A program made the position numbers and the translations under genes. A stretch of DNA of 64,000 bases, from assembly GCA_030704615.1 (NCBI GenBank), contig CM060734.1:40672001-40736000 (forward strand). Reading direction: 5' to 3'. The DNA is from Takakia lepidozioides (taxonomy: Eukaryota; Plantae; Bryophyta). Of the stretch, positions 3,095 to 47,759 are shown piece by piece; position 1 is the stretch's first letter; every line of letters starts with the position of its first letter. Below the pieces are notes generated by a model that made no database searches, was not told the origin of the DNA, and saw only the letters and a list, made by a program, of their open reading frames with translations.

Positions 3095-5048
3095 GGGAGT
3101 GGACAAGGAATTTACCAGAGTGAGGAATGAAGACAATGTCTCCCAAGTTTGGGACTTCTCTTTGACTGTGCCGCCTTTCCTCCTTGGTTCCATTATGTCC
3201 AAGAAGCTTTCGTTGATTGTCTTGTGTTGGTATCCCGTGGCCACACCTCTGCAGGGTTAGGTAGGGCCTCGTATGGTTTGTACGACAGAGCCAGTTGTGA
3301 ACCCCTCTGAGCCCCTCCTACCACAGCAGCCGCTGCCTGACTTTGTTCGCCCTCTTTCTTTTTGTCCTTCTTCTTTCCACCCTTCTTTTTCGGGCTCTGA
3401 TTTACAACTGGAAAAAGCACTCCGTGGATATATCTGCGAAAACAAAAACAACAAAAATCATGAGAGTTCATAGGAAGACATGATAGCAGACTCCATCCTT
3501 TTGTTGTAACACTTAACAAAAAACAATCCAAGTGTAGGCTAAACTCATCTTTGCGTCAACGAAAGCCTCTTTCCGGTTCTGAAACAAGAGTTTGACACTT
3601 AAGAAATCATTTTATCACTCAAGTCGTGGGCTGCCATCAAACAGGCTTGCGTCAACGCAAGCCTCATGCAGACCCGGTAAAAGTCTCGTTGCCTCAAAGT
3701 TTTGCACGAAGGAAACACTCCATAGCTGTACTTAAAATTCTCACAACATACCCCTTCCTAATACTTGGTTCAAACTACCAATATCTATTCCACACACTAG
3801 ATAGGCTTGCGTCAACGCAAGCCTGATCCTAGCCCAATGACACTGGGGAGAATGCAAGCCATGAGTAGCAGGGTCAGCAGGCTTGCGTTAACGCAAGCCT
3901 CAATAGAGGCAGCTTCTATCTTAAAGAACAGCTCACCACATTAAAAAGCATGAAATGAAACCTGTATATGACTCACTTCATCGCCTGCTCCCCATTGTAC
4001 TACGCATCGAACAAATTCGAACAGTCAATCCCACCATCCATAGCAAATTCGCGGAAGAACGCATGGTCCCAAACGATCTCTTTCCACCTCTTATCGAGGT
4101 CTCGAATGACTCATCGGGTGTACAACGACTATCTTGAAGTTTGTTAGAGATTTCTCCATAACCTCCTCAGCCCTCTCCTCCAACTTGCACACAAATAACT
4201 TGGTTAGATTTTGCGAATGCACTCAAAGACATTCAACACAGACATTGAAGACCTGTGTCATGATATTCTTACCTGCGCCCATAATGTGGCTTTATGAAGC
4301 CAGATGTCCCACACTTAAGCCACCGTATTTCCACTGCTGGTTCCACCATTGCCATGGCGAGCCTGTGCAGCTTCTCTTGTGTCATTTCAAGCTTTGTTGT
4401 CTTGCTCCAATGAATGCGAACCTCATCCAGAAACTGAGGGCCAAGACCAGGATCAGCTATGCGCAGTTGCTTGGTGAACGCAGTCACCACCTTCCCGCGG
4501 AATTTGTTCATGTGGAAGGTCATTGCCGCCTCAATACCGTGGGCAGTGCGTTCACTTTCTGGAGTTTTTCCGTAATATTCCGCTTTTCCCCTCTCTCCCG
4601 CATCAGCAATTTCTTGCTATCCAACCCAAAGGCAACGTTTAAAAGGTCAGACTCTCAAATGTGCAATAGGTACCTGAATAAACTTCACAATGATTCAGGC
4701 TTGCGTTGACACAAGCCTGAACATGGGTACATATGAATGATAAAAAAAGGCTGTTTGTAGGACCTACAGTGTACATGTACTCCAGGAACGCATCCCTCGT
4801 CAGTGTGTACCATGTCTCTACCCTTTTGGAGGTCTCGCACTTCTCGAAGGCCTCGGGTGAAAGAATAGTCTTGAAGCTAGACAATGGCATCCATCCTAGC
4901 TTTTGCATCCTGAATAATGTGTGCACCAAGTTTGTGGTGACATAGGAAGACTCTATCTGCCTGCACCATCAAAACGAGTGTGAGAAAAGGTTTTAATGGC
5001 AAATAATAGCATTTGAGGTTGCATCAGAATCTGGTGGTTGAAGAGAAC

Positions 5049-5520
5049 TTACTTGTTTATATCATGCATGGCTGTAAGTAGCTGTGTGTAGTTTCCCTTC
5101 GGATCCAAAACGCACGCTGCGACGGAGTAATGCCAATCTTTCTCCTCTCGATGCATAGATTCAATGTACTCCATCCAAGCAAGCGGGCGGTGGTTCCCGT
5201 CCCAAACAAAAAACATCTTGTTACTGTACACCTGCAACTCCGGACTCTTGGACAGAGACTGCTCGAATTCCAAATTCACTTCCCTCCAGCACTCATCCCA
5301 CTTGCCCTCGATGTCGTCGTCTACTAGTCTCTCATTCCCATTGGAGTCTCCAACAGAATTGTAAAAGACTGGGGTTCCAAACACATACCCGTGCACAAAA
5401 TCTCCTTGAAGCTTCCTGATATCCCCGGTCAGGGCAGGACGAACAACAAGCATTGATATCATCCTGCTGAGGGGTACCATGAGGTTCGCCTCCATAACCA
5501 TCATGGATCAGATTACCTGT
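5049..5520 (-). pseudogene. ParB/Srx-like domain exon (copy 1)
   Basis: VRPALTGDIRKLQ..MFFVWDGNHRPLAW; DGxHR / GxxRxxA motif; exon ends at a GTAAG donor. Confidence 0.6.
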
Positions 5521-5589
5521 CCAGATTGCACTTTCGAGCCTGACCTTATCTTGGTGGCCATGCCTTTGTAATCCATATTTGTGTCTTGC

Positions 5590-5990
5590 ACTTCTGTCTG
5601 GAGAATCTGTGCACAATTTTGCTGACGGTGGAATCAGCCATACCAAACATTTCCCCTATAGTGAGAAAAGAATCTCCTATTGCAAACCTTCGTAGAGATA
5701 ATGGCTACTTGTTTGGCAATTGACAGTTTTTTGCCTTTGATGTTTTGCAAACCAGCAGGCAGATTTCACATGAGGTCATTGCCAAGAATATCACACAAAC
5801 AATCGAATGTGGATACTGTCACTCTAAGCATTTTCCGAAATCTCTCTTCATCTTCCCTCATCACAGTCTCTGCAAATTGATCCCACCAATGAATAGAACG
5901 GGGTTTGATATACCCCGGACCAAAAAATGACCCAAAAATCTGAACCTTGTTTAAATTGCCTTGAGTGATTGTTGAAATAAGCACATGTTC
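5590..5990 (-). pseudogene. PIF/Harbinger transposase N-terminal fragment (copy 1)
   Basis: WWDQF..DEERFRKMLRVTVSTFDCLCDIL..LSIAKQVAI, then in a shifted frame SLRRFAIGDSFLTIGEMFG..STVSKIVHRF. Confidence 0.75.
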
Positions 5991-6899
5991 CTCTTTTGAA
6001 GCACCGCAATTGCTTATGATTCTATTTGTCTTGCTCGCTTTTCGGGCTGCTACTGGAGTGTATAGCCGTATGCGATCATCAAACGTGGCACGGCTAAAGC
6101 AAATTGCAATGTAGTGGCCACTACAGAAGTCGCGGAAACCATTGTAATGAAAGTCGACATCTCAAAGAAATCCATAAATTTCGGCTGTGTGTGGAGGAGG
6201 ACAATCACATTCTGTACAACATGAAGATGTGCCTACCGATAATCAAGCGTGGGAAAGTAAGGAAACTCAAGGGTGCGAGGAAAAAGATTTTCTTTGTCAC
6301 ACACCTGCAAAAGTGTCGGTGAAATCCACCGGACGGGTTTAGTTCCATAGTGGTGCATAGAAATGGGTGTGAATGGATGTGACCCGTGGTCAAACCCATT
6401 TTTGGATGACATCCTGTAATGGGAATGGGTTTACCTGGAAGGGAACCATTATGCTCTCTATGTCATCCCTACTCCCCCTCCTTCGGTTACTGGGTATTCC
6501 CTGTGGGAATTACGCTTTTTCGGCCCCGAGGTTATTTTTTCCTCCTTGTTTTTAGCCCCTTCATTAATAAACTTCCAGGGGCTCTGTCCGTTGTTCTAAA
6601 AAAAAAATAAAAAAAAAATATTTTATATTTATATTATATGTATCGAGAATATAATAATATGTATAACGAATTCTTAACTATATCATCATAATGATTGAGT
6701 ACGAGCCAGTAGTCCTTAACAACTTTAATGGGCTTAAGGATAAATTAGTGAAAACAACTAATAGTTGTAGTAATATTTTTATTTCACCTAATTGTACCTT
6801 AACTTCACAGCTGGCCGTTAATCTTGAGTTAATGCAATTGCTAACACCTAAGAACGCTAACTACTGTGTGCGAATATTCAACAAAAAAAACGTTACAAG

Positions 6900-12153: not shown

Positions 12154-15100
12154 ATGTTGACTTTCATTACAATGGTTTCCGCGACCTCTGTAGTGGCCAC
12201 TACATTGCAATTTGCTTTAGCCGTGCCACGTTTGATGATCGCATACGGCTATACACTCCAGTAGCAGCCCGAAAAGCGAGCAAGACAAATAGAATCTTAA
12301 GCAATTGCGGTGCTTCAAAAGAGGAACATGTGCTTATTTCAACAATCACTGAAGGCAATTTAAACAAGGTTCAGATTTTTGGGTCATTTTTTGGTCCGGG
12401 GTATATCAAACCCCGTTCTATTCATTGGTGGGATCAATTTGCAGAGACTGTGATGAAGGAAGAAGAAGAGAGATTTCGGAAAATGCTTAGAGTGACAGTC
12501 CACATTCGATTGTTTGTGTGATATTCTTGGCAATGACCTCATGTGAAATTTGCCTGCTGGTTTGCAAAACATCAAAGGCAAAAAACTATCAATTGCCAAA
12601 CAAGTAGCCATTATCTCTACGAAGGTTTGCAATAGGAGATTCTTTTCTCACTATAGGGGAAATGTTTGGTGTGGCTGATTCCACCGTCAGCAAAATTGTG
12701 CACAGATTCTCCAGACAGAAGTGCAAGACACAAATATGGATTACAAAGGCATGGCCATCAAGATAAGGTCAGGCTCGAAAGTGCAATCTGGACAGGTAAT
12801 CCGATCCATGATGGTTATGGAGGCGAACCTCATGGTACCCCTCAGCAGGATGATATAAATGCTTGTTGTTCGTCCTGCCCTGACCGGGGATATCAGGAAG
12901 CTTCAAGGAGGTTTGTGCACGGGTATGTGTTTGGAACCCCAGTCTTTTACAATTCTGTTGGAGACTCCAATGGGAATGAGAGACTAGTAGACGACGACAT
13001 CGAGGGCAAGTGGGATGAGTGCTGGAGGGAAGTGAATTTGGAATTCGAGCAGTCTCTGTCCAGGAGTCCGGAGTTGCAGGTGTACAGTAACAAGATGTTT
13101 TTTGTTTGGGACGGGAACCACCGCCTGCTTGCTTGGATGGGAGTACATTGAATCTATGCATCGAGAGGAGAAGATTGGCATTACTCCGTCGCAGCGTGCG
13201 TTTTGGATCCGAAGGGAAACTACACACATCTACTAACAGCCATGCATGATATAAACAAGTAAGTTCTCTTCAACCACCAGATTCTGATGCAACCTCAAAT
13301 GCTATTATTTGCCATTAAAACTTTTCTCACACTCGTTTGATGGTGCAGGCAGATAGAGTCTTCCTATGTCACCACAAACTTGGTGCCACACATTATTCAG
13401 GATGCAAAAGCTAGGATGGATGCCATTGTCTAGCTTCAAGACTATTCTTTCACCCGAGGCCTTCGAGAAGTGCGAGACCTCCAAAAAGGTAGAGACATGG
13501 TACACACTGACGAGGGATGCGTTCCTGGAGTACATGTACACGGTAGGTCCTACAAACAGCCTTTTTTTTATCATTCATATGTACCCATGTTCAGGCTTGT
13601 GTCAACGCAAGCCTGAATTTGTGAAGTTTAGATTCAGGTACCTATTGCACATTTGGGAGTCTGACCTTTTTAACGTTGCCTTTGGGTTGATAGCAAGAAA
13701 TTGCTGATGCGGAGAGAGAGGGGAAAAGCGGAATATTACGGAAAAACTCCAGAAAGTGAACGCACTGCCCACGGTATTGAGGCGGCAATGACCTTCCACA
13801 TGAACAAATTCCGCGGGAAGGTGGTGACTGCGTTCACCAAGCAATTGCACATAGCTGATCCTGGTCTTGGCCCTCAGTTTCTTGATGAGGTTCGCATTCA
13901 TTGGAGAAAGACAACAAAGCCTGAAATGACACAAGAGAAGCTGCACAGGCTCGCCATGGCAGTGGTGGAACCAGCAGTGGAAATACGGTGGCTTCAAATT
14001 TGGAACTCTGAGCCTGTTCTACGGCAAGCAAATAGTTTTTCCCTATGGGGAGAGAAGAACCCACCACTGGAGTCGTCACCCCTTTCAGTGACCAAGTGTG
14101 GGACATCTGGCTTCATAAAGCCACATTCTAGGCGCAGGTAAGAATATCATGACACAGGTCTTCAATGTCTCTGTTGAATGTCTTTGAGTGCATTCGCAAA
14201 ATCTAACCAAGTTATTTGTGTGCCAGTTGGAGGAGAGGGCTGAGGAGGTTATGGAGAAATCTCTAACAGACTTCAAGATAGTCGTTGTACACCCGATGAG
14301 TCATTCGAGACCTGGATAAGAGGTGGAAAGAGATCGTTTGGGACCATGCGTTCTTCCGCGAATTTGCTATGGATGGTGGGATTAATTGTTCGAATTTGTT
14401 CGATGCGCAGTATAATGGGGAGCAGGCGATGAAGTGAGTCATATACAGGTTTCATTTCATGCTTTTTAATGTGGTGAGCTGTTCTTTAAGATAGAAGCTG
14501 CCTCTATTGAGGCTTGCGTTAATGCAAGCTGCTGACCCTGCTACTCATGGCTTGCATTCTCCCCCAGTGTCATTGGGCTAGGATCAGGCTTGCGTTGACG
14601 CAGCTCTAGTGTGTGGATAGATATTGGTAGTTTGAACCAAGTATTAGGAAGGGGTATGTTGTGAGAATTTTAAGTACAGCTATGGAGTGTTCTTCGTGCA
14701 AAACTTTGAGGAACGGACTTTACCGGGTCTGCATGAGGCTTGCGTTGACGCAAGCCTGTTTGATGGCAGCCCACGACTTGAGTGATAAAAGGATTTCTTA
14801 AGTGTCAAACTCTTGTTTCAGAACCGGAAAGAGGCTTTCGTTGACGCAAGGATGAGTTTAGCCTGCACTTGGATTGTTTTTTGTTAAGTGTTACAACAAA
14901 AGGATGGAGCCTGCTATCATGTCTTCCTATGAACTCTCATGATTTTTGTTGTTTTTGTTTTCGCAGATATATCCACGGAGTACTTTTTCCAGGTGGTTTT
15001 CTAAGCTCCTACTCATTCTTCATTGACAGCTGGGCAAAGACAAATCCCGACACAACAATGTACACAATGGGCATTCTGGAGGACTGGAGCATGTCTCATT

Positions 15101-15451
15101 TCAAAGACTGTGGGTGGTACCTTGATTGCCCGAAACAATCGACACCCTGGGAGGAGAAGGTCCAGCGAAACTTGAATGACAATGCAGAGGCTCTTGCTCC
15201 TCTGACAGATAGGCAGCTGCAGTTGAGAGATCTCCGGCTTCTCAAAGCAAAGGAACCAGTTGTAAATCAGAGCCCGAAAAAGAAGGGTGGAAAGAAGAAG
15301 GACAAAAAGAAAGAGGGTGAACAAAGTCAGGCAGCGGCTGCTGTGGCAGGAGGGGCTCAGAGGGGTTCACAACTGGCTCTGTCGTACAAACCATACGAGG
15401 CCCTACCTAACCCTGGCAGAGGTGTGGCCACGGGATATACAACAAGACAAT
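12154..15451 (+). repeat. Copy 2 of composite repeat, left part; continues at 26381 after E1
   Basis: Reverse complement of ~3216-6160; colinearity resumes at 26381 (aaagcttcttggacataatg). Confidence 0.9.
12330..12725 (+). pseudogene. PIF/Harbinger transposase N-terminal fragment (copy 2)
   Basis: Same motifs as copy 1 (HWWDQFAETVMKEEEERFRKMLRVT..KQVAI..). Confidence 0.75.
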
Positions 15452-15776
15452 TGTCAAGTTATTTACCACTAGTGTGAAACTAGCTAGGAAATAGCTATCT
15501 TTTACATATTGACATTTGGGATTGGCCCAAGTGTCAATCCAGGGGTCAAGGCAGATTTAGGCCCTGGAGTGGTTATCTTCACGGCAAGCGCGGGGGCTCA
15601 TCTTTCTCGAGTTGAGCCTCACCGCGCCTAGCTATGGCGCCGTAGTGTGGATTCCCCATGGCGTGGGGTGCACTTGGCTTGACTTGTATTTGAGTGATGA
15701 GGTTATATATGCATGAGTTTATGCTTCATCTTTGTGAGCTCGCATGAGCTTGTGCTTGTATTCTTCTTCTTTATCA
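15452..15776 (+). repeat. E1 repeat A1
   Basis: Direct repeat of 25865-26189, about 4-5 differences by eye; ends ttatCA. Confidence 0.95.
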
Positions 15777-15792
15777 CTCGAGAAAGATCAGC
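15777..15792 (+). promoter_or_regulatory. E1 self-priming PBS
   Basis: (a)ctcgagaaagat is the reverse complement of atctttctcgagt at 15600-15612 inside A1. Confidence 0.75.
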
Positions 15793-17289
15793 TCGTATCT
15801 GTGAGTGCCAGATACGAGTTAGTTGTAGCACTTGTGGTTTTTGCTTGAGAATGAGAGAAACCAAGTTGTTATGCAAGGAGCACCGTGGAGCTCTTAGTTG
15901 TTAGAAGCGGAGGCGATGTGGGTTACGAGGTCGTAGACCTTGGCATTCGATCTTCAGCTTCAGAGATGAAAGCACCATGCTGCAGGTAATTCCAGAGCAC
16001 TTGTGTACAGAGGTTCAGATGAGCAAGCACACGATTGGGAAGAGGACCAGTCAAGAGCAGGTTATAGTGGCTTTGGTGGCAAAGCTGAGAACTGGACTTG
16101 GGAATGCGAGCTTTCATTGTGTGAAGGATTGCAAGACCAAGCGAAATGGCTGATTTTGCTTGGGGCAAATCAGTGCACTTTGTGGATATGGTGAGATTTG
16201 GGTTTCAATCTCGAGCTTCGCATGAGAGGGCTCTTGTCATGCAAGAGCAGGGCTGGAACTCAGGAGCTAAGAGGTGCGGCAAGGCCATGGAATGTGCACC
16301 TAGGTTTCAGAGCTTGGAAGAAGAGTTCTTGCACCACAAGAGAAGTGTCTTGTGGCTGGAAATGTAAGCCTTAGGGTTTCAGGAGCTTGGCAAAGGCTAT
16401 GGAGTGCTTAGTCTTGTTAGAGAGCATCAAGGAGCCAAGGAGCCAAGATAGGGGGCTGATATCTCTTGTGTGAAGAGGTTGCATGTGTGGAGCATGTATT
16501 CAGCTCATTGAAGCTTCCATCTTCAAGCTTGGAGGGCAAGCAAGGAAGAGGGAAGGGCTGACTTCCCTTATGTGAGGGCAATGTATGTGTGGAGCATGCT
16601 ATCAGCCTGGTGAAGGCTTGCACTTTTAGGTGTGGGAGTGCAAGAAAGGAAGGAAGGGGCTGGTTTCCCTGTAGGGCATGTAGAGCATGCTTTCAGCCTG
16701 CTGAAGCTTGTATTATCAGGTTTGTGGGTGCAAGAAATGAAGCAAAGGAGCTGATTCTCTTATGGTGAGAGTGGGGCATGTGTGGAGCATGCCTTCAGCC
16801 CATTGAGGCTCTTGTTTTCAAGCCTTAGAGAGCTAGAACGGAAGGTCTAGGGCTGGTTTCCACTTGGAGTGAAAGAACAGCACTTGTAGGGCCTATGTGA
16901 GTTGGGGTTTCAACTTCAAGCTTGAAGGGAGCGCAACTCTTGAAGCAACAGGTGTAGAGGGCTGGAATAGGCTCTAAGACAGATGCTATGGTCAATGAGG
17001 GGAGTGCTTGAATGAGTGCTCACAAGGGCTGGGAACCAGCAGGGCTTGGTTGTTTGCCATTGAGTTTAGTGGCGTGTTTAGGGAGGCTAAGTGAGAAAGA
17101 AGGCTTGGTTTGTGGCAACCACCTCATGGCTTAGGGCTACTATGGTGGTGTGTGTGGGAGCCGAAAGAGCAAGGATACCTTGCTGATTTCCTCACAGCCA
17201 CCATAGCTCGGTGGAAAGAAGCCTAGAGTCCAAGAGACACAAACCCTAGCTTGGCGTGGCTAAAACCCTTGGAGAAATGGCTAAGCTGC

Positions 17290-17900
17290 CAGAGCGGCAT
17301 GTGGGGGCTTGTGACAAAGCTGTGACGGGCTGTGATGTGACATGTGTGTGCTGTGACAGGCTGTGAAAGTGAAATGTGACACGGGCTGTGTGTGTGTGGG
17401 CTCTGTGAAGGCTGTGCCCTGTTGGGGCTGTGACGGGCTGTGAGGCTGGTGCCCATGGCCTTTGGGGCTGTGACGGCTGTTGTGAGGCTGAGGACGGGCT
17501 GTGACAGGATGGCCTTTGGGGCTGTGACTGTGAACAGACCCTGTGTACTGTGAAGCTGTGGGCCTTTGGGGCTGTGACGGGCTGTGTGTGACAGGCTGTG
17601 GGGGGCTGTGACTGTGTGTGACAGGCAAAAGGGCTGTGACAGGCCGTGCTGGCCTTTGGGGCTGTGACGGGCTGTGAGGGGCTGAGGCAGGCCTGTGACA
17701 GGCTGTTGAAGGACTGACGGGCTGTGACTGTGACAAAACCTGTTGGACCCCAGGCACTGTGACAAGGCCCTGCCTGTGTAACTGTGAATGTGACCAATGT
17801 CTGTTCTGTTGTGGCCTTTGGGGCTGTGACGGGCTGTGGAAACGAGGCCCTGTGTGTGACTGTGTGGAAATGTGAAGAATGTGAACAAAACCAGTGAACC
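17290..17900. repeat. Low-complexity array (GGGCTGTGAC/CTGTGA variants) in E1 5' UTR
   Basis: Dozens of ctgtga-containing units. Confidence 0.9.
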
Positions 17901-18125
17901 TGTGGATGGCCTGTGCTGACTCGTGGAGGCACTGGTGGACTAAGGACTGGCATGTGGTCTGGAAGGCCTTTTGAAGCTCGTGGAGGGCGGTTTGAGGAGT
18001 ATCTTCATGATATTCCCATGGTAGGTGTAGGCTATGTTAGGAACTTAGTATTCCAACCATAAGCGCAACAGGTTCTCTACCCGGTTACCTTGTGGAGAGG
18101 GGGTTAGGGACATGTTCATGACCGG

Positions 18126-20700
18126 TTGAGTGTCAACACGGAGGTGCCACTAGTTGCTGGGACAGTGCCGGTTCGAGCACTAGCGATACTAGTGGGTACA
18201 CGACGAGGTGTGCGGTTTAGGCCACCTTCACCTCCTGTGTCTTCCACGGAAGGTTCTGATTCGGATTGTGAATCAGGAGGACTCATACCGGCGGTGCAAG
18301 TTGTTTCTTTGCCATTGTTGTGGGACACAATGGAGGAGATGTATGGAGCTACCAAGGGGCCACGAAGGTACTCTGGGGCGGTGGGCACCATTGAGTTGGA
18401 TGATTTTATCCAAGAGTTTGATAGTTGGTGTGATTTGCAGCAAATGCGCAATCCACAACTATTTACGCCGTTCATGGCATGGAAGGGCTGTTTCAGCACC
18501 TTGAGGGGCCGCCTATGGATGATTACCATGAGTTCAGGCGGGGGCATGAGGTTGAGATCGAGGAGTGGAGGATGTACTGGTCACCCGACTATGTCTCCAT
18601 CACTAGGGGCACTAGAGCCACGAGGGCAGTGGCTACACCTGCCGCTGCACCGGCAGCTTCAGCAAGCAGCAGTGGGACTGGTGGTACAGTAGCTACGACG
18701 TCCACCCAAGCCACTACCGCACCAGCACTAGCACCCGTGCCTGCCTTCAAACCCTGTTGTGGAGTTCTTCGAAGAGTTGAGAGGGAACTACCAAGGGGTG
18801 AGGACAGAGAAGTTGCGGAGCTTGCAAGAGTTCCAACGGAAGCCGACCGAGAGCTTGAGGGAGGCTTTCACTCGCATGAGGCGCTTGATAAATGTAACCC
18901 AAGGGGTTACGGAAGCTCAGGCAGTCCAATTCTGGTATGGGATATTGGACAAGGAGCTGAGGAGAAGGGTGCGGGATGCAACTCTCCTACAAGCGGCCCA
19001 ACCCACCTTAGCAAATGTGTTTTTGCTGGCAGAGCGGATAGAGCTCAACATGGTGGAGGAACGAGTGGTCATGGTGGGATTTGCTAAGGAGACACCACGG
19101 GGTAGTGGTGCTCCTAGCCAACCACTACCTCAACGTGCTCAAGGCAACAAGGGGGCTCAGGTGAAGCTCAGGGAAGGGCAGAGAGGACCTCAGATGCAGG
19201 GGTCTCTCCTTCATTTGCTGGCCAACAACGGGCGGATGTGGTGTGCTGGACATGTGGAGGACCCCATGTCAAGAAGGATTGCCCAGAGGGAGGCAAAGGG
19301 CGGCACATGCACAGCCTGCACAGTTGCAGTGTGGGCATTGTGGCAAGCACGGGCATGGAGAGGCCCAGTGTTATGGTTTGCATCCTGAGTTGCGCCCAGG
19401 CCAGTTCCAAGGGAACAATGGTGGCCGGGGGCGAGGTGGAGCAGCCCAGAGAGGACGAGGTGGCCAGCCACGAGGTGCAGGCCAAGGGCAAGCTCAACGT
19501 GGCCAAGGACGCGGAGGTCAGGGTGTTGACCAAGGCATGGCCAACCGGCTTCAGCAGCTAGAGCAGAGGCTCGCTGCCATGGCTACAGCTCAGGTGGTAC
19601 CGGCTCTAAGCCGGATGGTCCACCTCCTGCTCCTGAGGGAGGAGATATGGGAGGCATGGGATTCATGTGTGGAGCAGCACTACCACTAGTGCAGGTGGAG
19701 TCTGCTGCAGCCGTGACTCGAGGAGCAGCACGAGTTCCTGAGCCACGAGGTGCAGAGGTGGAGTTGGATCCACAGCGTGGGGAGGCAAGCCGTCAGGCTA
19801 GGCTTCCTCAGTCATTCACATTGGCGGAGACAGTGTCGACGCCATCCATGGCACCTAGTTCTCGCCCGACTGTTACCGAGGCGGAGGTTACTATGCCATT
19901 GGGGAGAGCTACACGGGTAGCACCACTACCTAGTGTTGCCAAGGCTACGGCAGCTAGTGTGCTGCTAGGAGCGGCCACATCTGTGTGCCAGGCTCCATTG
20001 TTCTCGGCTACCATGATTGCGACGCCGGGGGTAAGACCAGCTGAGGTGTTCAGGCTGGCAGCTACACTCTGTGAGAGTGGGGAGGTTACTTCATCTTCTG
20101 CGGAGATAGTGGGAGGTGTAGTGCCGGAGGGATCCTCGGATTTGAGGGTCAAGACTGCCACGGCGGCGCCATGGCAAGCTGCAGCTGCCAGGTTGATGGA
20201 GCTGCCAGCTAGGCCAGCCATTGAGCGCGCCATGGTGACACCTGGAGTTGTCATGTTAGACAACCAGGATGGCATTTTCTGTTTGAGTGGACCGGCAGGC
20301 AAGAGGTACCGGCCACTGCGGTCTTGTTGGACTCGGGAGCTCAGCCATGATGCTGGGCAGAGCTGCTATTGCAGGCTTGGGCCTCACGGAGGCGGATATG
20401 GAGCCTTGTCCTTTCCAGATACAGACGTCTCTGGGAGGATCGGAGCAGGCTCGGGGCATGACACGGCATGAGTTGGCTATCAGACTACGCCGGATCACCC
20501 TACAGATGGCTCAGTGATGCGAGCCAAGGCCATTGTGACAGACGCAGTCTCATACGATGTCCTGGTTGGTGGGGCAGTGTTGTACCCCATGGGCTTCACC
20601 CTGGATTTTTGGGAGGAGTCAGCTTCCTATAGGCCTGCATGGCAGTCAGGGGAGGGCCGGCGTGTGCAGCTCCCTGTGACGTTCATAGGAGGAGTTGCGG
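18126..20700 (+). pseudogene. E1 gag + aspartic protease (frameshifted)
   Basis: LDDFIQEFDSW; FQRKPTESLREAFTRM; zinc knuckles CWTCGGPHVKKDC and CGHCGKHGHGEAQC; protease LLDSGA near 20325-20342. Confidence 0.85.
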
Positions 20701-21038: not shown

Positions 21039-21990
21039 GGCATTTGTCTTCTGGACTTGTTTGGCGGGATCAGCACCGGATTGGCTGCTGTGTTACAGGC
21101 AGGTGTACGAGTTCGGCGTTACCTGTATGTGGAGAGGGATGAGACTGCACGACGCGTTTCACTTCGCCATGTTGCTCAGTTGGTGCAGCGGTACCCTGAG
21201 TTGTTGTCGGTGTCTGCAATTCGTGGATATCAGCAGGCCTTGCCAGCAGACATTTCGTTGCTGGGGGCGCAGGATTTGGAGCGGGTTGGCTCCATTGATC
21301 TGGTAGTGGCAGGTTGGCCCTGCCAAGGGCATTCATCAGCCGGGCATGGCAATGGATTGCGAGACTCGAGGTCGGGTCTGTTTTGGGAGATGGTGCGGGT
21401 TTTGCGCCACTTGCAGCTTCATCAAGCTGTATCTCCAGCATACATCTTGGAGAATGCCACTGATGGGCGATTCTCGGGCCAGGGTGATGGCCAGTGTGCA
21501 TCAAGTCCGGTCGTGGCTTGGGTCAGCAGTGTTGCTAGATGCAGCTACAGTGGGGTCACGGGCTCATCGTCCACGGCTATGGTGGACTAACATGATGCCA
21601 CCCGCACTGCTCAAGCGTGCATTTGATGGGGTGCAGCGGCCAGCACATCTCACAGTGGATAACATTCTGGACACAGGGAGGCAGTCTCAACGTGTGAGAC
21701 ACGATGACCGTTCGCCTTTGGCAGTGGTCAACAAGGTGGGTCAACCACGAGCAGCATTACCTACACTGCTCAGCTTTCCCAGGATCGCATGCTTTCCGGG
21801 ATAGTGGACCTGGCCTCCTGTGGGATGCTCAGTTGCAGCAGTTAGTGGAGCCTAATGCTGACGAGCGTGAGCGGGCAATGGGTTTTACCACTGGTACCAC
21901 GCGGTGTCTCTTTCTCTTTCTGAGGCATCACGTCGTCAAGTGTTGGGGCAAGCAATGGATCTCAATTGCTTGACCTGGATTATCAGCTTG
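21039..21990 (+). pseudogene. E1 DNMT3-like C5 cytosine methyltransferase domain
   Basis: Motif I LDLFGGISTG; II YVERD; IV IDLVVAGWPCQ; SGLFWEMVR; VI YILEN; VIII AHRPRLWWTN; IX ERERAMGF; X RRQVLGQA. Confidence 0.9.
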
Positions 21991-22399
21991 GCTCTAGCTG
22001 AGCAACGCAGAGTGCGGAATACACTTCCCTCAATGGTCTCTCTGCCTACCGAGACGGTACAGGCAGTGAGTGGGGGCGAGCATATGAGGACCACGGGGTG
22101 CATGCATCCATGGCACACGTGGGAGGTGCTCGAGGTTCAGAGGGAGTTGGCAGCCAAGGCGGCTGTGATGGATGAGGTTGGGGATTCTTCTCGGTTGAGG
22201 AGGTCCTCAAGGATGAGATGATGGGGCAGGATGAGCCTTGTCATTGACTGAGCAGGTAGGGAGTACTGCTCAAGAGGTTGCAGCATAGCAACCACGGGAC
22301 GCGTCCTCTACCTCTAAGCCCACTGGACTTAAGGTTGTAGTTACGGAGGACAATTGGGAGCCTGACATTGGACCCATTGTCACCGGAGGAGAGAGACGA

Positions 22400-25300
22400 C
22401 GTATACGGCGGTTCCTGAGGGCTTACAGGAATTGCTTTGCCTTCAGTTTGAAGGACTTGGGAGCACTGAAGGGTCAAGAGATCCGTATTGAGTTGGCCAC
22501 TGACACGCCAATCTTTCGGAGACCCTATAGATACAGTGACATGGAGAGGTCTTTGATTCAGATGAGGACTCAAGATCTCTGGGAGGCAGGTTTGGTGGAG
22601 CTCTCTGGTGGAGAGTATGCTTCAGCCACAGTGATGCCAGCCAAGAAGGATGTCTATGGCAATTGGACGGAGAGACGTATGTGCGGTGATTACCGGCCTG
22701 TAAATCGTCAGACCAAGTCCGATAAGTATGCCATGCCAACACCAGAGGAGATCTTTGATGCCATCGGGCATGCTAAGGCCTTTAGCACTTTGGATTTACG
22801 ATCCGGATATCACCAGTTGCCAATCAAGGAGGCGGACAAGCAGAAGACGGCATTCTGGGGGATCAATGAGCACGGCAAGGATTGCCTATATCAGTGGCGG
22901 TTCTTACCATTTGGGCTTAAGAATGCTCCTGCAGAGTTTCAGAGAGTCATGGATAGGATTCTAGCAGGGGTGGACTTTGCTCGGTGCTACATAGATGACA
23001 TCATCATCTTAGTGTTACGATGGAGGAGCATGAGAGACACCTTCAGGTGGTATTGGAGCGCTTGAGAGCGCACGGATTGAAGTTGCATCCGGGGAAGTGC
23101 AAGTTTTTCCACAACCAGATTGAGTATCTGGGTCACATGATATATCCTGGAGGATTGGGGGTACAGCAGACTAAGGTAGAGGCCATTGCACAAATTCCAC
23201 GCCCCACGGATGTGAGCCGAGTTCGAGCTTTCATGGGGTTGGCAAACTATTATAGACGGTTTGTCAAGGGATTTAGTACCATTGCAAAGGCTCTAACCAA
23301 GCTGACCAAGGTGGACCAGGAGTGGCAGTGGGAAGATGAGCAGGAACGAGCTTTTCAAGAGCTCAAGGCGAGGTTGACCTCGGCGCCTATCTTGAGACGA
23401 CCTATCAGGGGGCGTCCCTTTCAGCTGCATACGGATTGGAGCATGCTGGGGCTTGGAGCGGTGCTCACACAGGTGGATGATGAGGGAAGAGAGTTCGTAG
23501 TGGCTTACGCTAGCCGCTCGAACAACGCTGCAGAGGCTAAGTACAGCTCATATGAGGGAGAGTGCTTAGCTGCAGTGTGGGCCGTGGCACACTTCAGGTG
23601 CTATCTATACGGCAATCTTTTCACCCTTGTCACGGATCACCAGCCACTCAAGTGGTTGATGGAGTCAGACAAGCTTACGGGGAAGCTTGCACGGTGGGCA
23701 CTTATACTCCAGGAGTATGACTTTCAGGTTGTGCATCGACCGGGTTTGGTCAATCGGGATGCGGATGGATTGAGTCGCAATCCATGCATGAGCCAGCAGG
23801 ATGACACTGGAGCTCGGTGGCATGGTGAGACGGACGAGGAGATGGTGCCGGGATGGCACGCATCTGCATTTTTGTGTATCTTGGCATCGGGAGGTCAGAT
23901 TGGACCTACAACAGGGATGACTGTAGACGGAGTGTCTGAGGACCCTGAGGCTAGTGATGAGCTAGGTGGTGCCAGAGATATACATGAGGATTCGGCTGTG
24001 TTGGACTACCTCCGCACGGGAGACACGGCAGCCATTGTGACTGCCAGGGAGAGGGATCGGATCCTGCAACGAGCCAAGAGGTTCAAGTGGGAGGGGATAC
24101 ACCTACTTCGAGTGTGGGAGGATGGTCGGGTGAGGATTGTGCCTCACCCCACACAGCGTGCACGGTTAGTGCGGCATGCCCATGAGGAGTTGGGGCATTT
24201 TGGAGTGCGACGCACTCACAGTTTACTGCAGGGCAGTATTGGTGGCGTGGTATGCATACAGAGGTGCAACAGTTTGTGGCTAGGTGCATGGTGTGTGACA
24301 GGGTGCGTGCTTCATTCAACGCCCCTACACCACAGTTGCATCCTTTACCTATCATGGGATTGGGCTACAGGTGGAGTCTTGACTTCGCAGGACCGTTGCC
24401 ACTGACTATGCGCCACCACAGATATGTGTTGGTGATGGTGGAGCACTTCTCCAAGTGGATTGAGTTGGTTCCATTGCCTGACAAGGTGAGGGGGCTGCGT
24501 ATGCATTCTTGGATCGTGTGCTTAGCCGATTTGGTGCTCCAGCTGAGGTACTCACGGACCAAGGGAGAGAGTTCTTGGGGGAGTTTCAGGCTTTGTGTGA
24601 TAAAGCCTTGATAGACCACCGCACCACTTCTCGGGATCATCCTGAGGCCGATGGCTTAGCAGAGAGAGTTGTTCAGACGGTGAAGAGGGGTTTGCGCAAG
24701 TATGGCTTGCAGAAGGGACACCTAGGAGATTGGGATCTTCAGGTTCCTTGGTTAGCCATGGGCTACAGGTTCAGCAAACAAGCATCACTTGCCTCCTTCT
24801 CACCATATTTCCTTCTCTTTGGCCGAGAGCCGGATTTGCCTGCAGCCATTCGTAGGGACACTGCTCAAGTCCTTAACCTTGACGATCCGGACGTGTGGGT
24901 ACGTGCATGTGATCAGCGTGCAGAGTTGTTCAAGAAAGTCATGCCCATGCTTTTGAGAACCTTGCCATTGCACAGCACCGTGATACGTTGAGGTATGCCA
25001 CTATACGTGGTGGAGGATATCGTCCTGGGGTTCGGAGGTTTAGCCCTGGTGACTATGTTTATTTGCAGCAGACTGCTCCTACGACTCTGGATGTTACTGC
25101 AGGGCGTGTTATTCTGAGGGTTCGAGAGGTGTTGCCCTCAGGGGTCCTGATCTTGGAGGGTCGGATGGCATGACTTGGAAGGACCATGTGCGTAATTGTG
25201 CGCCATGTCACCTTCCCAATGTCGATGGCAGAGTTGACCCAAACTTGGCAGTGGTACCTGCAGGTTTGAGGTGCATGCTCTGTGGGTCTGCCAAAGGGGC

Positions 25301-25412
25301 AGCCACCATGCTGGTGTGTGATCGATGCTCAAGGGGTTGGCATATGGGATGCTTGACACCACCTCTTGAGAAGGTTCCTGACGGAGATTGGTTGTGTCCA
25401 CACTGCTTGGGA
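22400..25412 (+). pseudogene. E1 RT - RNase H - DDE integrase - PHD finger (frameshifted)
   Basis: RMCGDYR, LDLRSGYHQL, PFGLKNAP, YIDD; HTDWS..YSSYEGECLA..TDHQPL; HEELGH..CMVC, WSLDF, TDQGREF, AERVVQTVK; CMLC..CDRCSRGWHMGCLTPPL..GDWLCPHC. Confidence 0.93.
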
Positions 25413-25664: not shown

Positions 25665-25675
25665 AGGGGGGCGAT
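25665..25675 (+). promoter_or_regulatory. E1 polypurine tract
   Basis: aggggggcgat immediately before TGTG of B1; same motif in E2 (57140-57150) and E3 (53269-53279). Confidence 0.8.
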
Positions 25676-26380
25676 TGTGTGGACTAGTGACTGCCATAGT
25701 GGGCAGCGTAGTGGCAGCCTAGTGACTGACTAGTTGTAGCCTAGTGGTTGGACTAGTGGCTGGACTAGTGGTGACTAGTGGTATACTAGTGTGTGGTGTG
25801 CACATGTGTTGTGTGGTTTTGGACAGCGATGTAGTTGTGTAGCGATATGTATGCGCACGACAGCTGTCAAGTTATTTTACCACTAGTGTGAAACTAGCTA
25901 GGAAATAGCTAGCTTTTACATATTGACATTTGGGATTGGCCCAAGTGTCAATCCAGGGGTCAAGGCAGATTTAGGCCCTGGAGTGGTTATCTTCACGGCA
26001 AGCGCGGAGGCTCATCTTTCTCGAGTTGAGCCTCACCGCGCCTAGCTATGGCGCCGTAGTGTGGATTCCCCATGGCGTGGGGTGCACTTGGCTTGACTTG
26101 TATTTGAGTGATGAGGTTATATATGCATGAGTTTATGCTTCAGCTTTGTGAGCTCGCATGAGCTTGTGCTTGTATTCTTCTTCTTTATCTATTGTGTGGA
26201 CTAGTGACTGCCATAGTGGGCAGCGTAGTGGCAGCCTAGTGACTGACTAGTTGTAGCCTAGTGGTTGGACTAGTGGCTGGACTAGTGGTAGACTAGTGGT
26301 ATACTAGTGTGTGGTGTGCACATGTGTTGTGTGGTTTTGGACAGCGATGTAGTTGTGTAGCGATATGTATGCGCACGACA
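25676..26380 (+). repeat. E1 3' terminal block B1-gc-A2-B2
   Basis: B1 25676-25862 matches B2 26193-26380; junction GACAGCTGTC at 25859-25868. Confidence 0.95.
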
Positions 26381-26599
26381 AAAGCTTCTTGGACATAATG
26401 GAATCAAGGAGGAAAGGCGGCACAGTAAAAAAGAAGTCCCAAACTTGGGAGACATTGTCTTCATTCCTCACTCTGGTAAATTCCTTATCCACTCCCGTAC
26501 TTGTCATTTGGTTCTTGCACTGTGGTTAAATGTCATTTGAATTGGATTGCTTTGGGGGGTGAAGGCTGGGAAAGGTCCATTGTGGGTAAACGGAGAGAA

Positions 26600-33282: not shown

Positions 33283-34738
33283 GGTGGCGCATGTTGTATC
33301 GCGCAACGTAGTGGAATTGCATGGTACTGCAACGTGCCAGCATTAAGAAAAAAAAAATGGATTTTTTTTGCGGCAACGACGTCTGTCAGCGCTACGATAT
33401 GTGGCAACACATCAATTATTATTATTATTATTATTTCATTTTCAGACGGTGCCTGTCCGCACTTTGCCACGTGGTAGAATATCAAACTCAATTTATTTTT
33501 ATATTTTTATATTTATTAGTTTTTGGTTTTCGGCGGCGCCTGTCCGCGCTGTGGTAGCATCTTGCGGAGCGACGGGGGACGGTGGCTACGCCAGGTATTT
33601 TACTTTTTTATTTTCTATTTTAATGCTCAAATGACCGCTGGTGCCGGCGACAATTGGATTATTTTATTTTATTTGTTTTTGTTTTTTTTTCATTCACGCG
33701 TAGTAACAGTTTTCGACAAAGAAACACACACACACTCTCTCTCTCCCTCTCTCTATCTTTCTTTTCGACAAAGATGGTACCGTGACTGACAAAAAGAGGT
33801 TTAAGAGTCTCCGAAAGAGTGTTATCTTCTCTACTTTGTAGTAGGGACACGGACTTGGTTACCTCACAAACTCCGATGGTTGTGTTGAATATCCAGTTGT
33901 TGTTGATGCTATTGTGGCTGTGGGAGGGTATATGTACAAAGTTACAGCCCTAGCCTTATCAGCACCTCCGGCAGGTATGGGGCCGTTTGAGGATATCTGT
34001 TTTTTTTATTCGCTTTGTTTGGATAGTGTAGGTTTGTTCCATCCACGGCTTCAGACTCCTTGCTTGATTATCGTGAACACAAAGTGTATCATGGATAGTG
34101 CACTTAGTTTTTGGAAGGATTTTCAAACCCTGTTTGTTTCTATCATTATTAGACATTGTCACCTTCGAAGCACCTCTGATTGAGTAGTTTTTCTTTACTG
34201 GCTATTAGAAAGCACTGCGTGTGCGTCCATTATAGTTAGGGTTTTTCATCCACGATTTGGTTGTGTCGTATCTGGTTTACTCTGTTCTGTGCGGTTATTA
34301 CGATCTTCCTTTGAGGGTACTGCATGTAGGCATGCAGGGGTTTCACACTTCATCTCATTTGGATGTTCTTTGGCTGTGTCTTTGTGTTCTTTATGCTCTC
34401 TATTCCATGTTTGGCCTATGGTATGCACATGATTCTTCTACAACCATATAGCCAGTCCTTCTCCAATATCTTTTTCCATCTTCTCAAATTCCCGACCAGT
34501 TTCGTTTTTTCATCTTCGTTGTTTCTACCAGATTGTGATGATCTTTCTCAAGAATGAATCAACTGTATGTTGCTCCCACAAAAACCTGACTTCCTACGGA
34601 ACGAGTACGACTTAGGATCTTATTCCCTGTGCAGCATAGAAAACTTCCCGTGTTAAAGAAAACCTATCATGAGATACGTAGGTAGAAGCCTAAGGTGGCA
34701 GAGAGGTTTCCGATCGAGACAGATGATTCAAGCTACCT

Positions 34739-35900
34739 GTGCATTTGACAGGAGCCTTGGATGACCAATTTGGCCAACCAACAGTTTACAATGGATACAT
34801 CATTCAGCTGCTATTTGAGTTGTGGAGGTCATATAGCACACACACTTTTGTGTACCAATGGTTGTTCAACTGTGATGAAAAGACAGGAAATAGTCGTTCC
34901 GCATCTATTAAAATTATGTTAAGACCTGGTACGCTCATCACAACGTTTGGATGTACCTTTCTTATTGATGAGGACAAGCTAAATTTCAGTCTTGATGCTG
35001 CTGAAAATGATCTTAGGGCAAAGGTGAAGCCACTTTTCACCATGTTTTACGGAGAGGTGCAATTCATTCTAGGCTACACAGCGGCAGACATAGAATTCCA
35101 GTGGGTTTACATTGGCAAGTATGGCCAGATCAGAAGAGTCGGTCCACGTCTTGACCTGTCAATTGAATCCGGTCGCTGCGAGTTTTTGTTCAGCATCGGC
35201 TATGCCAATCAATTAATTAAGAAAGTGGTAGACTTAGTCCCTGATGTGTTAGACCGCCGTACTATGTTCACTGAGGATATTGAAGGAGATAGGATAATAT
35301 ATTTATATCCTGATAGAGTTTGTAAGTCCATCAAGAACTTTAACAGTTTTGGTGAGGATCACATGACCGCATTGGATGTGATACTGAGGGCTTACGAAGC
35401 TGGAGAAAGATATCTCTCCCTTCCGTGTTTAATAAGAGAAATTTTGAACGAGGTCCCCATAAATCGTATAAGAACTTACATAGTTGAGATTAGTCCTCTT
35501 GGACACCAGCCTATATTGAGGTCCGAGCGAGATACCAAGATATTGGCCAAGAATGTGTGTGAAGCCTTCTATGTCCTCCATGAGGAGGGCCTCGTTCACA
35601 GGGATATCCGACTCCCTAATATTTTGTAGGTATCAGAGGAGCAGTTCATGTTAATTAACCTAGAAACAGTCGCATTATCCCATTTCCAAGTGCCAGAAGG
35701 ATTTCAACATTTCTCATACTGGAACATTGAGATATTGGAGGGTAGCTTTTACACGCCCATGTCAGATATGTATCAGCTTGAAAGACTTTTGGAACAGTGA
35801 GCACCTGCGATAACTACGAGTACAGAATCTGCTCAACAATTTATAAGGAAGTTTAAATCAAAGGCACTGCAGCGGAAACATTGATTCATCATTGGCTATC
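34739..35900 (+). pseudogene. Crinkler (CRN)-like REase + protein kinase pseudogene
   Basis: LRPGTLI..FLIDEDK..AAENDL..FYGEVQFILGYTAA (REase-like); LHEEGLVHRDIRLPNIL*..FMLINLE..YTPMSDMYQL (kinase); in-frame stops. Confidence 0.6.
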
Positions 35901-39959: not shown

Positions 39960-40307
39960 TGTCATGGTTTTGTTTGTGATTAGTTAGAAATAGTTATTTC
40001 TAGCTAATTATGACATTATACATTTATAGTTGTATTTTGTTGGCATTGAGACTTCATTTGGTTCCATGTGCCAAGTGAGATGACGAACCTCATTTGGGAC
40101 GTGGAGAGGTTATCTCCACGTGAGACGTAGGCAGACTCGTCTTCTTCTAGTCGAGCCTCTCGAGGCCTCTCTCGCCGCCATAGCTCTAGTACTTGAGATG
40201 GAGAGTGGGTAAGGTCGGTATGGTGGAGTCCTTTAGCAAAGGTGTCATTAGCTTGACTTATATAATGTGATAGAGTGGTTTCTCCTCTTTTCACCATTTC
40301 AGTATCA

Positions 40308-40319: not shown

Positions 40320-41139
40320 CTACTTACATCTATGAGTGCAAGGTGTTAGCATAGTTAGCACTTGTGTGTGGAAGAGAGCTTGATAGATAGCTCTTAAGTT
40401 ACAAGGTATTGCAGGGTTTGCAAGAAGAAAGCCTTGTGGTGTTTATGTACAAGAGGAGGTCTTCAAGGAGAGCCCATTGAAAAGTTTGAGAGCTTGTGAA
40501 GAAGCTTTTGTTCTGCAAGTGTTGCAAGGTTTGAGGAGTTCAAGAAGAGCTCGGGTGTTAAGGGAGCAAGCGGTGCATGTGTGGAGCATGGTTTCAGCTT
40601 GTGGGAGGTAGACATCTGATTTCTCTTGGGGGCAGAATAGTGTATTTGTAGAGCATGCTTTGAGTTGAGGTTTCAATCCCAAGCTTGGGAAGAGCATGTC
40701 TATGGAAGTGACAAGTGCAGGGCTGGATTATGAGCTCTAAGAGGTGCACTATGGCCATGGAAGGAAGCACTATGAGTGCATGCGATGGCTACAGAGGGTA
40801 TGCCATAGAAAGCTCAATAACTTGTTCTATGCTTGTTTCAATAAGTTCTAAGAGAAAGAGAGCTTGTTGTGTGGCAAATAGCTTGCTCAGGGAGTTAGAG
40901 GCATTTTTGGTGGTCTGTTGATGCTCAAGAAACCAAGAACAACACCTCTGGTTGCTCCATAGAAGCCATAGCCCGTTACAGCAATCGCAGAGGCAAAGCG
41001 ACGCAAACCCTAGCTTGGGAACGCTTGGGAACGCTTGGGAATTCGATGGAACTTGTGGGAACGTATGGGAACGCGTGGGAACATTGCCCCAAAGTTGGGA
41101 GCACCACCATTGTCCCATAGGATGAACTATTGAGCCAGT

Positions 41140-42010
41140 GGATGAAAATCGGCACTCTTGGATGAGAATCGGTTGCAGTGGATGAAACTGCGCCAACGGA
41201 TGATCTATCGCGCTATCGGATGAAAAATTGCGGTGACGGATGAAGCTGTGTCAGCGGATGAAATCGTGGCAGCGGATGAAAAATCGCGGCGACGAATGAA
41301 ATCACGCCAGTGGATGAAATATCGCACCGATGGATGAACTATCACAGCAGACGAAGTATCGGACCTGCAGATGAGAAATCACGGTTTTGGATGAAATTTG
41401 GTTAGTGACGGATGAAAAATCGATTGACTGTGGATATTTTTGGAGCCTTTTGGGGGCTTGTTTGAGGACTATTTGGGGCTATTGAGGCCAATATCTTACA
41501 GGTATTGGGGCCGGCTTTGAGGACTATTTGGGGTCTATTGAGGCCAATATCTTGTAGGTATTGGGGCCTGCTTTGAGGACTATTTGGGGTCTATTGAAGC
41601 CAATATCTTGCAGGCTTGTGGAGCCTGCTTAGGGTTGTTTGAAGGACTATTTGGGGTCCTTTGAGGCAGGCCTGTGGAGCCTTGTGAGGGCTGGTTGGAG
41701 GACGATTGGAGGTCCTTGGAGGCCCATATTGGGCATGCTTATGGAGTTTTCTAAGAGCTCTTTGGGGGGCTATTGGAGGTCCTTGGGGGCAAATACTTGG
41801 CAGATTTGAGGAGCTTCTTAAGGGTTGTTGGAAGACTGTTGGAGGTCCTTGGAAGCCAATACTTGGCAGATTTGAGGAGCTTCTTAAGAGCTGTTGGAGG
41901 ACTATTGGAGGTCCTTGGAGGCCAATACTTGGCAGATTTGAGGAGCTTCTTAAGGGCTGTTTGGTGGACTCTTGGAGGCCATATTGGGCAGGCTTGTGGA
42001 GCCATTGAGG
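41140..42010. repeat. Tandem arrays in E2 5' UTR (GGATGAA units, then ~55-63-bp units)
   Basis: Repeated ggatgaa; repeated tttgaggactatttgggg and ttggaggtccttggaggccaatacttggcagatttgaggagcttctt. Confidence 0.85.
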
Positions 42011-47452: not shown

Positions 47453-47759
47453 TGTCAACATAGTGAAACTGAAAGATGGGCGGTCATTGTCTATAGACAT
47501 TGTGGTAGTGGGCGTAGGCGCGAGACCACTCATAGCCCTTTTGAAGGAGCAGTTGGCTGTTGAGAAGGGAAGTTTCAAGGTTGATGGGTTTTTCAAAACA
47601 AGTGCTCCAGATGTCTATGCCGTTGGTGATGTTGCCACCCTCCCCCTGAAGCTGTTCGGTGACCTGCGCAGAGTAGAGCACGTTGATCATGCTCGCAAAT
47701 CAGCTATTCAAGCTGTTCAGGCTATCAAGGCAGCTGAGGAAGGGAAGACTATTGCTGAA
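47453..47759 (+). pseudogene. MDHAR: Captured monodehydroascorbate reductase fragment (intronless)
   Basis: VKLKDGRSLSIDIVVVGVGARP..KVDGFFKTSAPDVYAVGDVATLPLKLFGDLRRVEHVDHARKSAIQAVQAIKAAEEGKTI. Confidence 0.9.

Follow-up and report, generated by a model that had tools for sequence, protein, structure and literature searches.

The window, a stretch of 64,000 nucleotides from Takakia lepidozioides, harbors three retroelements in the forward orientation: E1, E2 and E3, the last being nested within E2. All three are laid out as A1–internal–B1–A2–B2. E1 comprises the following features (coordinates, strand, description):

15452–15776, plus, repeat A1, with 5′ end TGTCA and ending in CA; 97.9% identical to A2
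15600–15611, plus, predicted 5′ end of the transcript and self-primer, able to pair with the 12 nt that follow A1
15777–15788, plus, primer-binding site, directly adjoining A1 and without TGG
18336–19404, plus, gag with zinc knuckles, frameshifted, delimited by tblastn to the intact relative P0061
20190–20654, plus, aspartic protease region with LLDSGA, frameshifted
21039–21990, plus, DNMT3-like C5 methyltransferase, motifs I–X unpermuted, with four indels relative to E2
22286–22294, plus, conserved stop TAG followed by CAA CCA, in the reverse transcriptase (RT) frame, with predicted readthrough
22583–23694, plus, RT and RNase H
24157–24841, plus, integrase, frameshifted
25272–25406, plus, C-terminal PHD finger (PF00628, E = 1.7e-11)
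25665–25674, plus, polypurine tract (PPT), before B1
25675–25862, plus, repeat B1, 99.5% identical to B2
25859–25868, no strand, palindrome GACA-GC-TGTC where B1 meets A2, predicted to be cut by the integrase
25865–26190, plus, repeat A2
26191–26380, plus, repeat B2, with 3′ end CACGACA; target duplication not visible

E2 and the nested E3 are organized as follows:

39960–40307, plus, E2 repeat A1, preceded by the target-site duplication (TSD) AAGA, with a self-primer at 40139 and a primer-binding site (PBS) at 40308
45700–46645, plus, E2 DNMT3-like methyltransferase, one frame with two premature stops
47021–47029, plus, E2 conserved stop TAG followed by CAA CCA
47077–53804, plus, E3, nested in E2, with split repeats, TSD CAGT, RT–RNase H–integrase–PHD and host-gene fragments
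53806–56900, plus, E2 RT, RNase H, integrase and PHD, resuming past E3
within 57140–57671, plus, E2 polypurine tract, B1 (57150–57235) and palindrome (57232–57241)
within 57140–57671, plus, E2 A2 (57238–57585) and B2 (57586–57671), followed by the TSD AAGA

The gag of E1 matches PF03732 with an E-value of 0.0015, below the cut-off, and a protease match (PF13650), likewise below the cut-off, was obtained in relative P0047 only. Neither gag, protease nor methyltransferase was found in E3, the integrase of which has D, D and E, with 34 residues separating the last two. In place of gag, protease and methyltransferase, positions 47430–48848 of E3 hold host-gene fragments: directly after the PBS, a plus-strand piece of a pyridine nucleotide-disulphide oxidoreductase (PF07992), presumably resembling MDHAR, and, on the minus strand, an uninterrupted frame for a 60S acidic ribosomal protein (P1; PF00428). 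These are likely to be captured mRNAs in a non-autonomous copy.

E1 lies in a repeat (3095–6160 versus 12154–15451 and 26378–26496), of which the window contains an inverted copy, 96–97% identical. This inverted copy supplies the empty site of E1, which shows that E1 has no TSD and that five bases of its target are gone. Empty-site joints for E1 also occur in sequencing runs X5 and X11. The long 5′ leaders of E1 (16400–17950) and E2 (41000–42050) contain degenerate tandem repeats that are unrelated to one another, and the antisense frames of these leaders gave no Pfam match. Elsewhere, the window contains a DUF4216 frame (740–1354), a protein-kinase fragment (34727–35629, plus strand) and an F-box/kelch-like gene (58156–59388, minus strand).

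E1 and E2 both carry a DNMT3-like C5 methyltransferase domain, as judged by its motifs and by its closest relatives in sequence and fold. In E1, motif I (LDLFGG) lies at 21051–21068, motif II (YLYVE) at 21120–21134, motif IV (DLVVAGWPCQG) at 21297–21329, motif VI (ILEN) at 21444–21455, motif VIII (RAHRPRLWWTN) at 21559–21591, motif IX (ERAMGF) at 21869–21886 and motif X (RRQVLGQAMD) at 21931–21960; the corresponding motifs in E2 are found at 45710 (I), 45956 (IV), 46103 (VI, ILENV), 46220 (VIII), 46529 (IX) and 46589 (X). An earlier note on this DNA, made from its letters alone, had placed unpermuted C5-methyltransferase motifs here in both copies. This is confirmed by the motif order, which is unpermuted in E1 (21051–21960) and E2 (45710–46618), and by PF00145, which matches both above its curated cut-off (E = 8.9e-11 and 1.4e-12, respectively). 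The same note had listed motifs I, II, IV, VI and VIII–X, with an intact catalytic PCQ: the catalytic PC is indeed present in E1, E2 and most relatives, but an indel near 21456 cuts motif VI in E1, leaving its ENV incomplete. Further indels relative to E2 lie near 21783, 21901 and 21910, and the E1 motifs are spread over three reading frames. In E2, the single frame with its two premature stops has motifs I, IV (PC), VI (ENV), VIII, IX and X.

Among sequences in the PDB, DNMT3A (1e-12) and then DNMT3B are the closest relatives, followed by DRM2 and bacterial enzymes at ~1e-5. A family profile gives the same ranking, with DNMT3A/3B at 5e-16 against 3e-4 for the tRNA methyltransferase DNMT2. A structure model was built for relative P0002 (66% identical to E2; mean pLDDT 63.6, and <50 at residues 250–306), and its best Foldseek match is again DNMT3A (3e-16). 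The suggestion that motifs VIII–X are DNMT3-like is thereby upheld, although the motifs quoted for it (AHRARYFWGN, ERVFGF and RQRLLG) are those of DNMT3A and not those of the window. In motif X of E2 (46570–46618), a Glu occupies the position at which DNMT3A has R882 (numbering as in the PDB title), and this is also the case in the aligned relatives; DNMT3A-type DNA contacts and CpG preference can therefore not be assumed.

The high identity of the terminal repeats of E1 (97.9% for A1/A2 and 99.5% for B1/B2) indicates that this copy is young, yet single-base indels are numerous in it. At many of the indel sites, E1 departs from contigs of the family in runs X1, X5, X6 and X11, and some of these indels may be private mutations or assembly errors. 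As many as 102,784 contigs of run X1 match E1, a figure that points to an abundant family and is not a copy number.

Between E1 and E2, dN/dS in the methyltransferase is 0.157 (Nei–Gojobori; bootstrap 0.09–0.23; 313 codons), far from the value of ~1 named in the earlier note as evidence against its proposal. Similar values were obtained for L055/L056 (0.127), L056/L059 (0.130) and L027/L022 (0.20), these loci being metagenome copies; several distant pairs were left out because dS was saturated. In the rest of E1/E2, dN/dS is 0.35 for gag, 0.24 for the protease, 0.04 for RT and 0.12 for the integrase. Close pairs of decayed copies give 0.40–0.43 for the methyltransferase, with RT raised similarly. 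Among the copies scored, FGG is conserved in 69/76, PCQ in 61/81 and ENV in 74/80; the catalytic Cys and ENV are kept in most copies. Judged by these substitution patterns, the methyltransferase is a family-level domain under purifying selection, shared by relatives at the same position, and not a one-off capture, in agreement with the original interpretation.

On the DNA, the domain lies between protease and RT, as first described, but not simply within one polyprotein: an in-frame TAG CAA CCA, at 22286 in E1 and 47021 in E2, splits it from RT–RNase H–integrase–PHD. The conservation of this stop was assessed in 80 metagenome loci plus the window, mostly belonging to one Sphagnum-like family and including duplicates, which yielded 50 testable DNMT–RT pairs, 14 of them indel-shifted. 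A stop is present in 36/36 same-frame linkers, 93–101 codons ahead of RT, and is the sole stop of the linker in 14 of these. Consistent with this arrangement, relatives P0061, P0069, P0076, P0047 and P0029 are proteins of 1319–1433 residues with the order Gag–zinc knuckle–protease–DNMT, ending shortly after motif X, and many relatives with RT, RNase H, integrase and PHD are separate proteins of about 1030–1140 residues; locus L056 consists of 1360 codons, one stop and 1047 codons in a single frame. By its place in these reading frames, the methyltransferase closes the Gag–protease frame, ahead of the conserved stop.

UAG-CAR-YYA is the readthrough signal of tobamoviruses and of the soybean retroelement SIRE1. 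Because the context of the stop matches this signal in E1, E2 and L027 (TAG CAA CCA), L055 (TAG CAA TCA) and L056 and L059 (TAG CAG TTA), readthrough is predicted, the same hexamer here separating Gag–protease–DNMT from RT–RNase H–integrase–PHD. It is likely that the UAG is read through to make the latter, and the enzyme upstream would then be made at Gag level. The predicted folds 3′ of the stop differ between E1 and E2, that of E2 being interrupted by E3, and a stimulatory RNA structure is not claimed. In other branches (Closterium P0288 and a group with the methyltransferase between RNase H and integrase), the methyltransferase is in frame with RT, so Gag-level amounts are not needed throughout the lineage.

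The ends of the elements are equally unusual. Gypsy domains and further Ty3/Gypsy traits are present (Gag–protease–RT–RNase H–integrase order, a DDE integrase, a self-priming PBS, a PPT and a 4-bp TSD), and the original assignment to Gypsy stands to that extent, but the ordinary LTR layout that it implied is replaced by split direct repeats. An ordinary LTR element was rejected, as the ends are A1 and B1–A2–B2, or A and B, and not two complete LTRs. The 12 nt following A1 are complementary to a 12-mer within A, with compensatory differences between elements; mismatches number zero in E1, E2 and L061 (reached by 0, 0 and 2 of 2000 shuffles, respectively) and two in E3 (reached by 17 of 2000). 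This complementarity fits self-priming of the Tf1 type. The polypurine tract precedes B1 and not A2, and reverse transcription should therefore duplicate the unit B+A.

At the A2/B2 junction, the end of A is joined to the post-PPT start. E1 has a 1-nt change there, L037 retains bases of the PPT together with an insertion, and L045/L046 retain the beginning of the PBS, as expected of joined cDNA ends. The genomic termini lie at the palindrome GACA-GC-TGTC (CA-GC-TG), which is retained in L055 and, with one change, in L056. Going by these sequences, the repeat layout fits a joining of cDNA ends followed by integrase cutting inside the LTR. An exact 4-bp target duplication flanks 10/13 insertions with both ends visible (E2, E3, L037, L039, L040, L045, L054/68, L061 and the overlapping pairs L014/17 and L069/70); L028 retains 3 of 4 bases, and E1 and L034 are without a TSD.

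In the Sphagnum-like set, 17/17 distinct 5′ ends begin at the palindrome TG, with no B upstream. Five 3′ ends are PPT–B1–A2, and one deleted copy retains A2–B2; of the rest, 11 run from PPT–B into flank, three have lost the PPT and run from B into flank, and one is cut off by the contig end. The 11 PPT–B–flank ends fit single-LTR circles or recombination between B1 and B2. Single permuted LTR copies (A–internal–B; L017, L023, L024, L028, L032, L033/34, L039/67, L040, L043, L058 and L073) outnumber the double form in this set, some of them with exact TSDs. The mirror form A–B–A–internal–B was found in 0/17 distinct 5′ ends, which disfavors a circle being cut at random at one or the other palindrome; one has to assume either that the upstream site is preferred or that repair takes place in the course of integration.

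Named carriers of the methyltransferase include Marchantia polymorpha, Calypogeia fissa, Sphagnum, Closterium, Mesostigma and Haematococcus, and the presence of relatives in Marchantia, Calypogeia and Sphagnum supports the land-plant origin that had been presumed for this DNA and makes a bryophyte the likely host. The motif set looks complete in one Marchantia carrier, Mp_4g09160 (P0008). In an RT tree (FastTree; 106 of 120 sequences after removal of near-duplicates), all carriers and the Klebsormidium nitens protein KFL_013780010 form one clade (0.88) apart from animal, Chara and Tanacetum Gypsy elements. KFL_013780010 is a partial protein without DNMT, placed by its RT within this carrier clade, and no K. 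nitens methyltransferase was among the 30 relative proteins checked for names. E1–E3 group with Marchantia, Calypogeia and L022 sequences (0.91). Proteins with the order RNase H–DNMT–integrase fall into one nested clade (0.99), which also includes two sequences that have the DNMT before RT or are unlabelled. This branch comprises P0035, P0038, P0041, P0335 and ~30 others, Haematococcus among them. In the methyltransferase tree (116 of 160 sequences, with one PWWP-bearing DNMT3 and one Symbiodinium protein as outgroups and plant host DNMT3/DRM absent), E2 groups with liverwort and Sphagnum members (0.996), and the post-RNase H domains group together with weak support (0.55). The methyltransferase thus appears to have moved within the lineage, and a single old capture with later relocation is a plausible course of events from these trees. 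A scan of IMG/VR gave no relative.

The closest known element is KnitGypsy-Dnmt3 of Klebsormidium nitens, in which a DNMT lies within the Pol ORF (de Mendoza et al. 2018, PMC5890265). According to the available excerpts of that paper, the element has Ka/Ks <0.2 and DIRS-like repeats, its acquisition is ascribed to the K. nitens lineage, and its domain produced no methylation in yeast, a result the authors call inconclusive; within these excerpts, neither activity of the Gypsy domain nor a role in the element cycle is shown. The two families share Gypsy domains, an unrearranged DNMT3-type domain, low Ka/Ks and a DIRS-like repeat layout. They differ in that the DNMT of KnitGypsy-Dnmt3 is in an ORF with RT and RNase H, whereas that of the window family is on the Gag side of a stop and in land plants; Closterium P0288 does have the Klebsormidium trait of a DNMT in one ORF with RT. 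The excerpted text of PMC5890265 does not mention priming, a palindrome, TSDs or a PHD finger (0 matches for ‘PHD’). Later accounts, also available as excerpts, call the element streptophyte (PMC12344493, from 2025, and bioRxiv 10.64898/2026.05.21.726589, which has ‘streptophytes (Gypsy-DNMT3)’) and name no land-plant members there. Across the Creative Commons PMC and bioRxiv literature searched, no account of land-plant members, the stop or the palindrome was found. Relative to what these excerpts describe for KnitGypsy-Dnmt3, the land-plant members, the Gag-side position before a conserved stop and the palindrome ends are new.

REM1 of Chlamydomonas is reportedly a PHD-bearing Gypsy element. 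Another from that alga, Gypsy-7a_cRei, resembles the window family in having a Gypsy polyprotein with a PHD finger but differs in that a methyltransferase is not among the domains listed in the part of PMC9940879 consulted. Tf1/sushi elements and plant Tcn1 share a PBS complementary to their own LTR, with no tRNA, and self-priming is noted for Tcn1 and TAR elements; by contrast, they have ordinary LTR ends and a chromodomain, and the survey in question (Neumann et al. 2019, PMC6317226) has 0 matches for PHD or methyltransferase in the main text as available. DIRS-order elements share the A1–internal–B1–A2–B2 layout, but those described in the accessible part of PMC8969392 use a tyrosine recombinase and lack TSDs, whereas the window family leaves 4-bp TSDs and encodes an integrase of the DDE type with an H2C2 zinc domain. 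A DIRS identity was rejected on these grounds, no tyrosine recombinase having been found among the 40 window ORFs scanned (of 80 listed). One DIRS-type element, SymbioDIRS-Dnmt3, carries a DNMT3 that methylates CG in yeast, as stated in the excerpts of PMC5890265. Host DNMT3 enzymes (human DNMT3A, moss DNMT3) are related through the fold and motifs VIII–X, which are closest to those of DNMT3A, but the window-family domain is only ~22% identical, intronless and without PWWP/ADD or the plant accessory domain. A DRM identity was rejected, as the motifs are not circularly permuted.

We consider it slightly more likely than not (probability ~0.55) that E1 and E2 derive, as broken copies, from a Gypsy lineage of green plants whose Gag-side DNMT3-like enzyme likely methylates the element's own new cDNA, in the following cycle. 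The RNA would start inside A1 and prime itself as in Tf1-type elements; most ribosomes would halt at the UAG and a minority would read through, with the enzyme packaged in Gag-like amounts. Reverse transcription in the particle would yield a linear cDNA of the form B–A–internal–B–A, the true LTR being B+A, and the methyltransferase would mark this cDNA in or just after the particle, such that the new copy arrives methylated. The cDNA ends would then be joined, whether by formation of a 2-LTR circle or through repair as the element integrates, and the integrase would cut the CA-GC-TG palindrome inside the upstream LTR to give A1–internal–B1–A2–B2; A–internal–B copies would come from single-LTR circles or B1/B2 recombination, and the PHD finger would tether integration to chromatin. 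Against this cycle, E3 moved without a methyltransferase, though helpers could have supplied the enzyme. Base composition gives it no support either, since CpG is not more depleted in the elements (observed/expected 0.47–0.63) than in the flanks (0.55–0.72); neither CpG nor CHG depletion tells element from flank, leaving no element-specific footprint. The more general statement, that an old lineage spanning chlorophytes to mosses and liverworts packs an active Gag-side DNMT3, delivers pre-methylated cDNA and has its integrase open end-joined cDNA at the LTR palindrome, is a tentative one, to which we give appreciably less than even odds.

What the enzyme acts on could be read differently. An active methyltransferase might work on chromatin instead, at the insertion site or in trans on copies already present, with the effect of damping the family or of reshaping the heterochromatin of the host; with production at Gag level, some enzyme would be expected outside particles, the element carries a chromatin-reading PHD finger, and insertion-site and host-benefit roles are discussed by de Mendoza et al. 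(excerpts of PMC5890265). The domain, however, is without a targeting module of its own and is separated by the stop from the integrase, and the missing CpG or CHG footprint also speaks against this explanation, which we regard as rather unlikely. Doubtful, too, is a non-catalytic or RNA-directed job, such as nucleic-acid binding in the particle or modification of the element RNA: the Klebsormidium domain was inactive in yeast (as excerpted from PMC5890265), E2 has Glu at the equivalent of DNMT3A R882, and the expected target-recognition region falls in the low-confidence part of the model, but the catalytic and SAM-binding motifs are retained at the frequencies given above and DNMT3A/3B rank far above DNMT2. 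That the methyltransferase is a passive host-gene capture, comparable to the MDHAR and ribosomal P1 fragments of E3, would accord with the evident ability of the family to acquire host fragments. This is nevertheless highly improbable: dN/dS of 0.13–0.20 between diverged families refutes it if the alignments are right, the domain occupies the same position in members from liverworts, mosses and algae, and the trees of RT and of the methyltransferase agree in how they group the architectures.

Two further proposals concern separate steps and are for this reason compatible with any of these functions. A spliced mRNA, a separate mRNA or reinitiation could each supply Pol without readthrough, the methyltransferase remaining Gag-side. 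In the Sphagnum-like set, an ATG lies two codons past the stop and the commonest context is CAA CCC (35 TAG and 14 TAA of 69 loci), one base off the CAR YYA signal, with the 14 TAA loci likewise favoring such a route. Set against this are the frame held across the stop in every unshifted linker (36/36), the lack of a nearby Met in E1, L027, L055 and L056, and a hexamer that stays within CAR YYN despite the divergence of the protein around it, and we think this route improbable. Alternatively, the split repeats could be copied by a DIRS-like or template-switch route, whereby the linear cDNA already ends at the palindrome and no joined-end intermediate arises. The layout is identical to the split direct repeats of DIRS elements (as described in the accessible text of PMC8969392), and the mirror permutation is absent from the 17 5′ ends. 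The 40 ORFs scanned, however, include no tyrosine recombinase, TSDs are present that DIRS elements lack (same source), and PBS and PPT remnants at A2/B2 mark the join of RT-defined ends, making this copying route an unlikely one. For the cycle preferred here, foamy virus and HIV-1 offer a precedent, in that their palindromic LTR junctions can be cut by integrase, as recounted in the available part of PMC2884000.

To the question of why a transposon should carry the type of enzyme that is used for silencing it, this family brings a concrete anatomy: a Gag-side methyltransferase followed by a predicted leaky stop. Members occur in Marchantia, for which methylation mutants and a transformation system are available, and the claims made here are testable in this model plant. 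The permuted ends suggest that the cDNA integrates after its ends have been joined; if this is true, LTR circles, normally taken as dead ends, would be productive intermediates, and such elements would probably escape finders that require two full LTRs. Finally, ORFs of this family are annotated in plant proteomes as hypothetical proteins or as methyltransferases and can inflate counts of host DNMT3.
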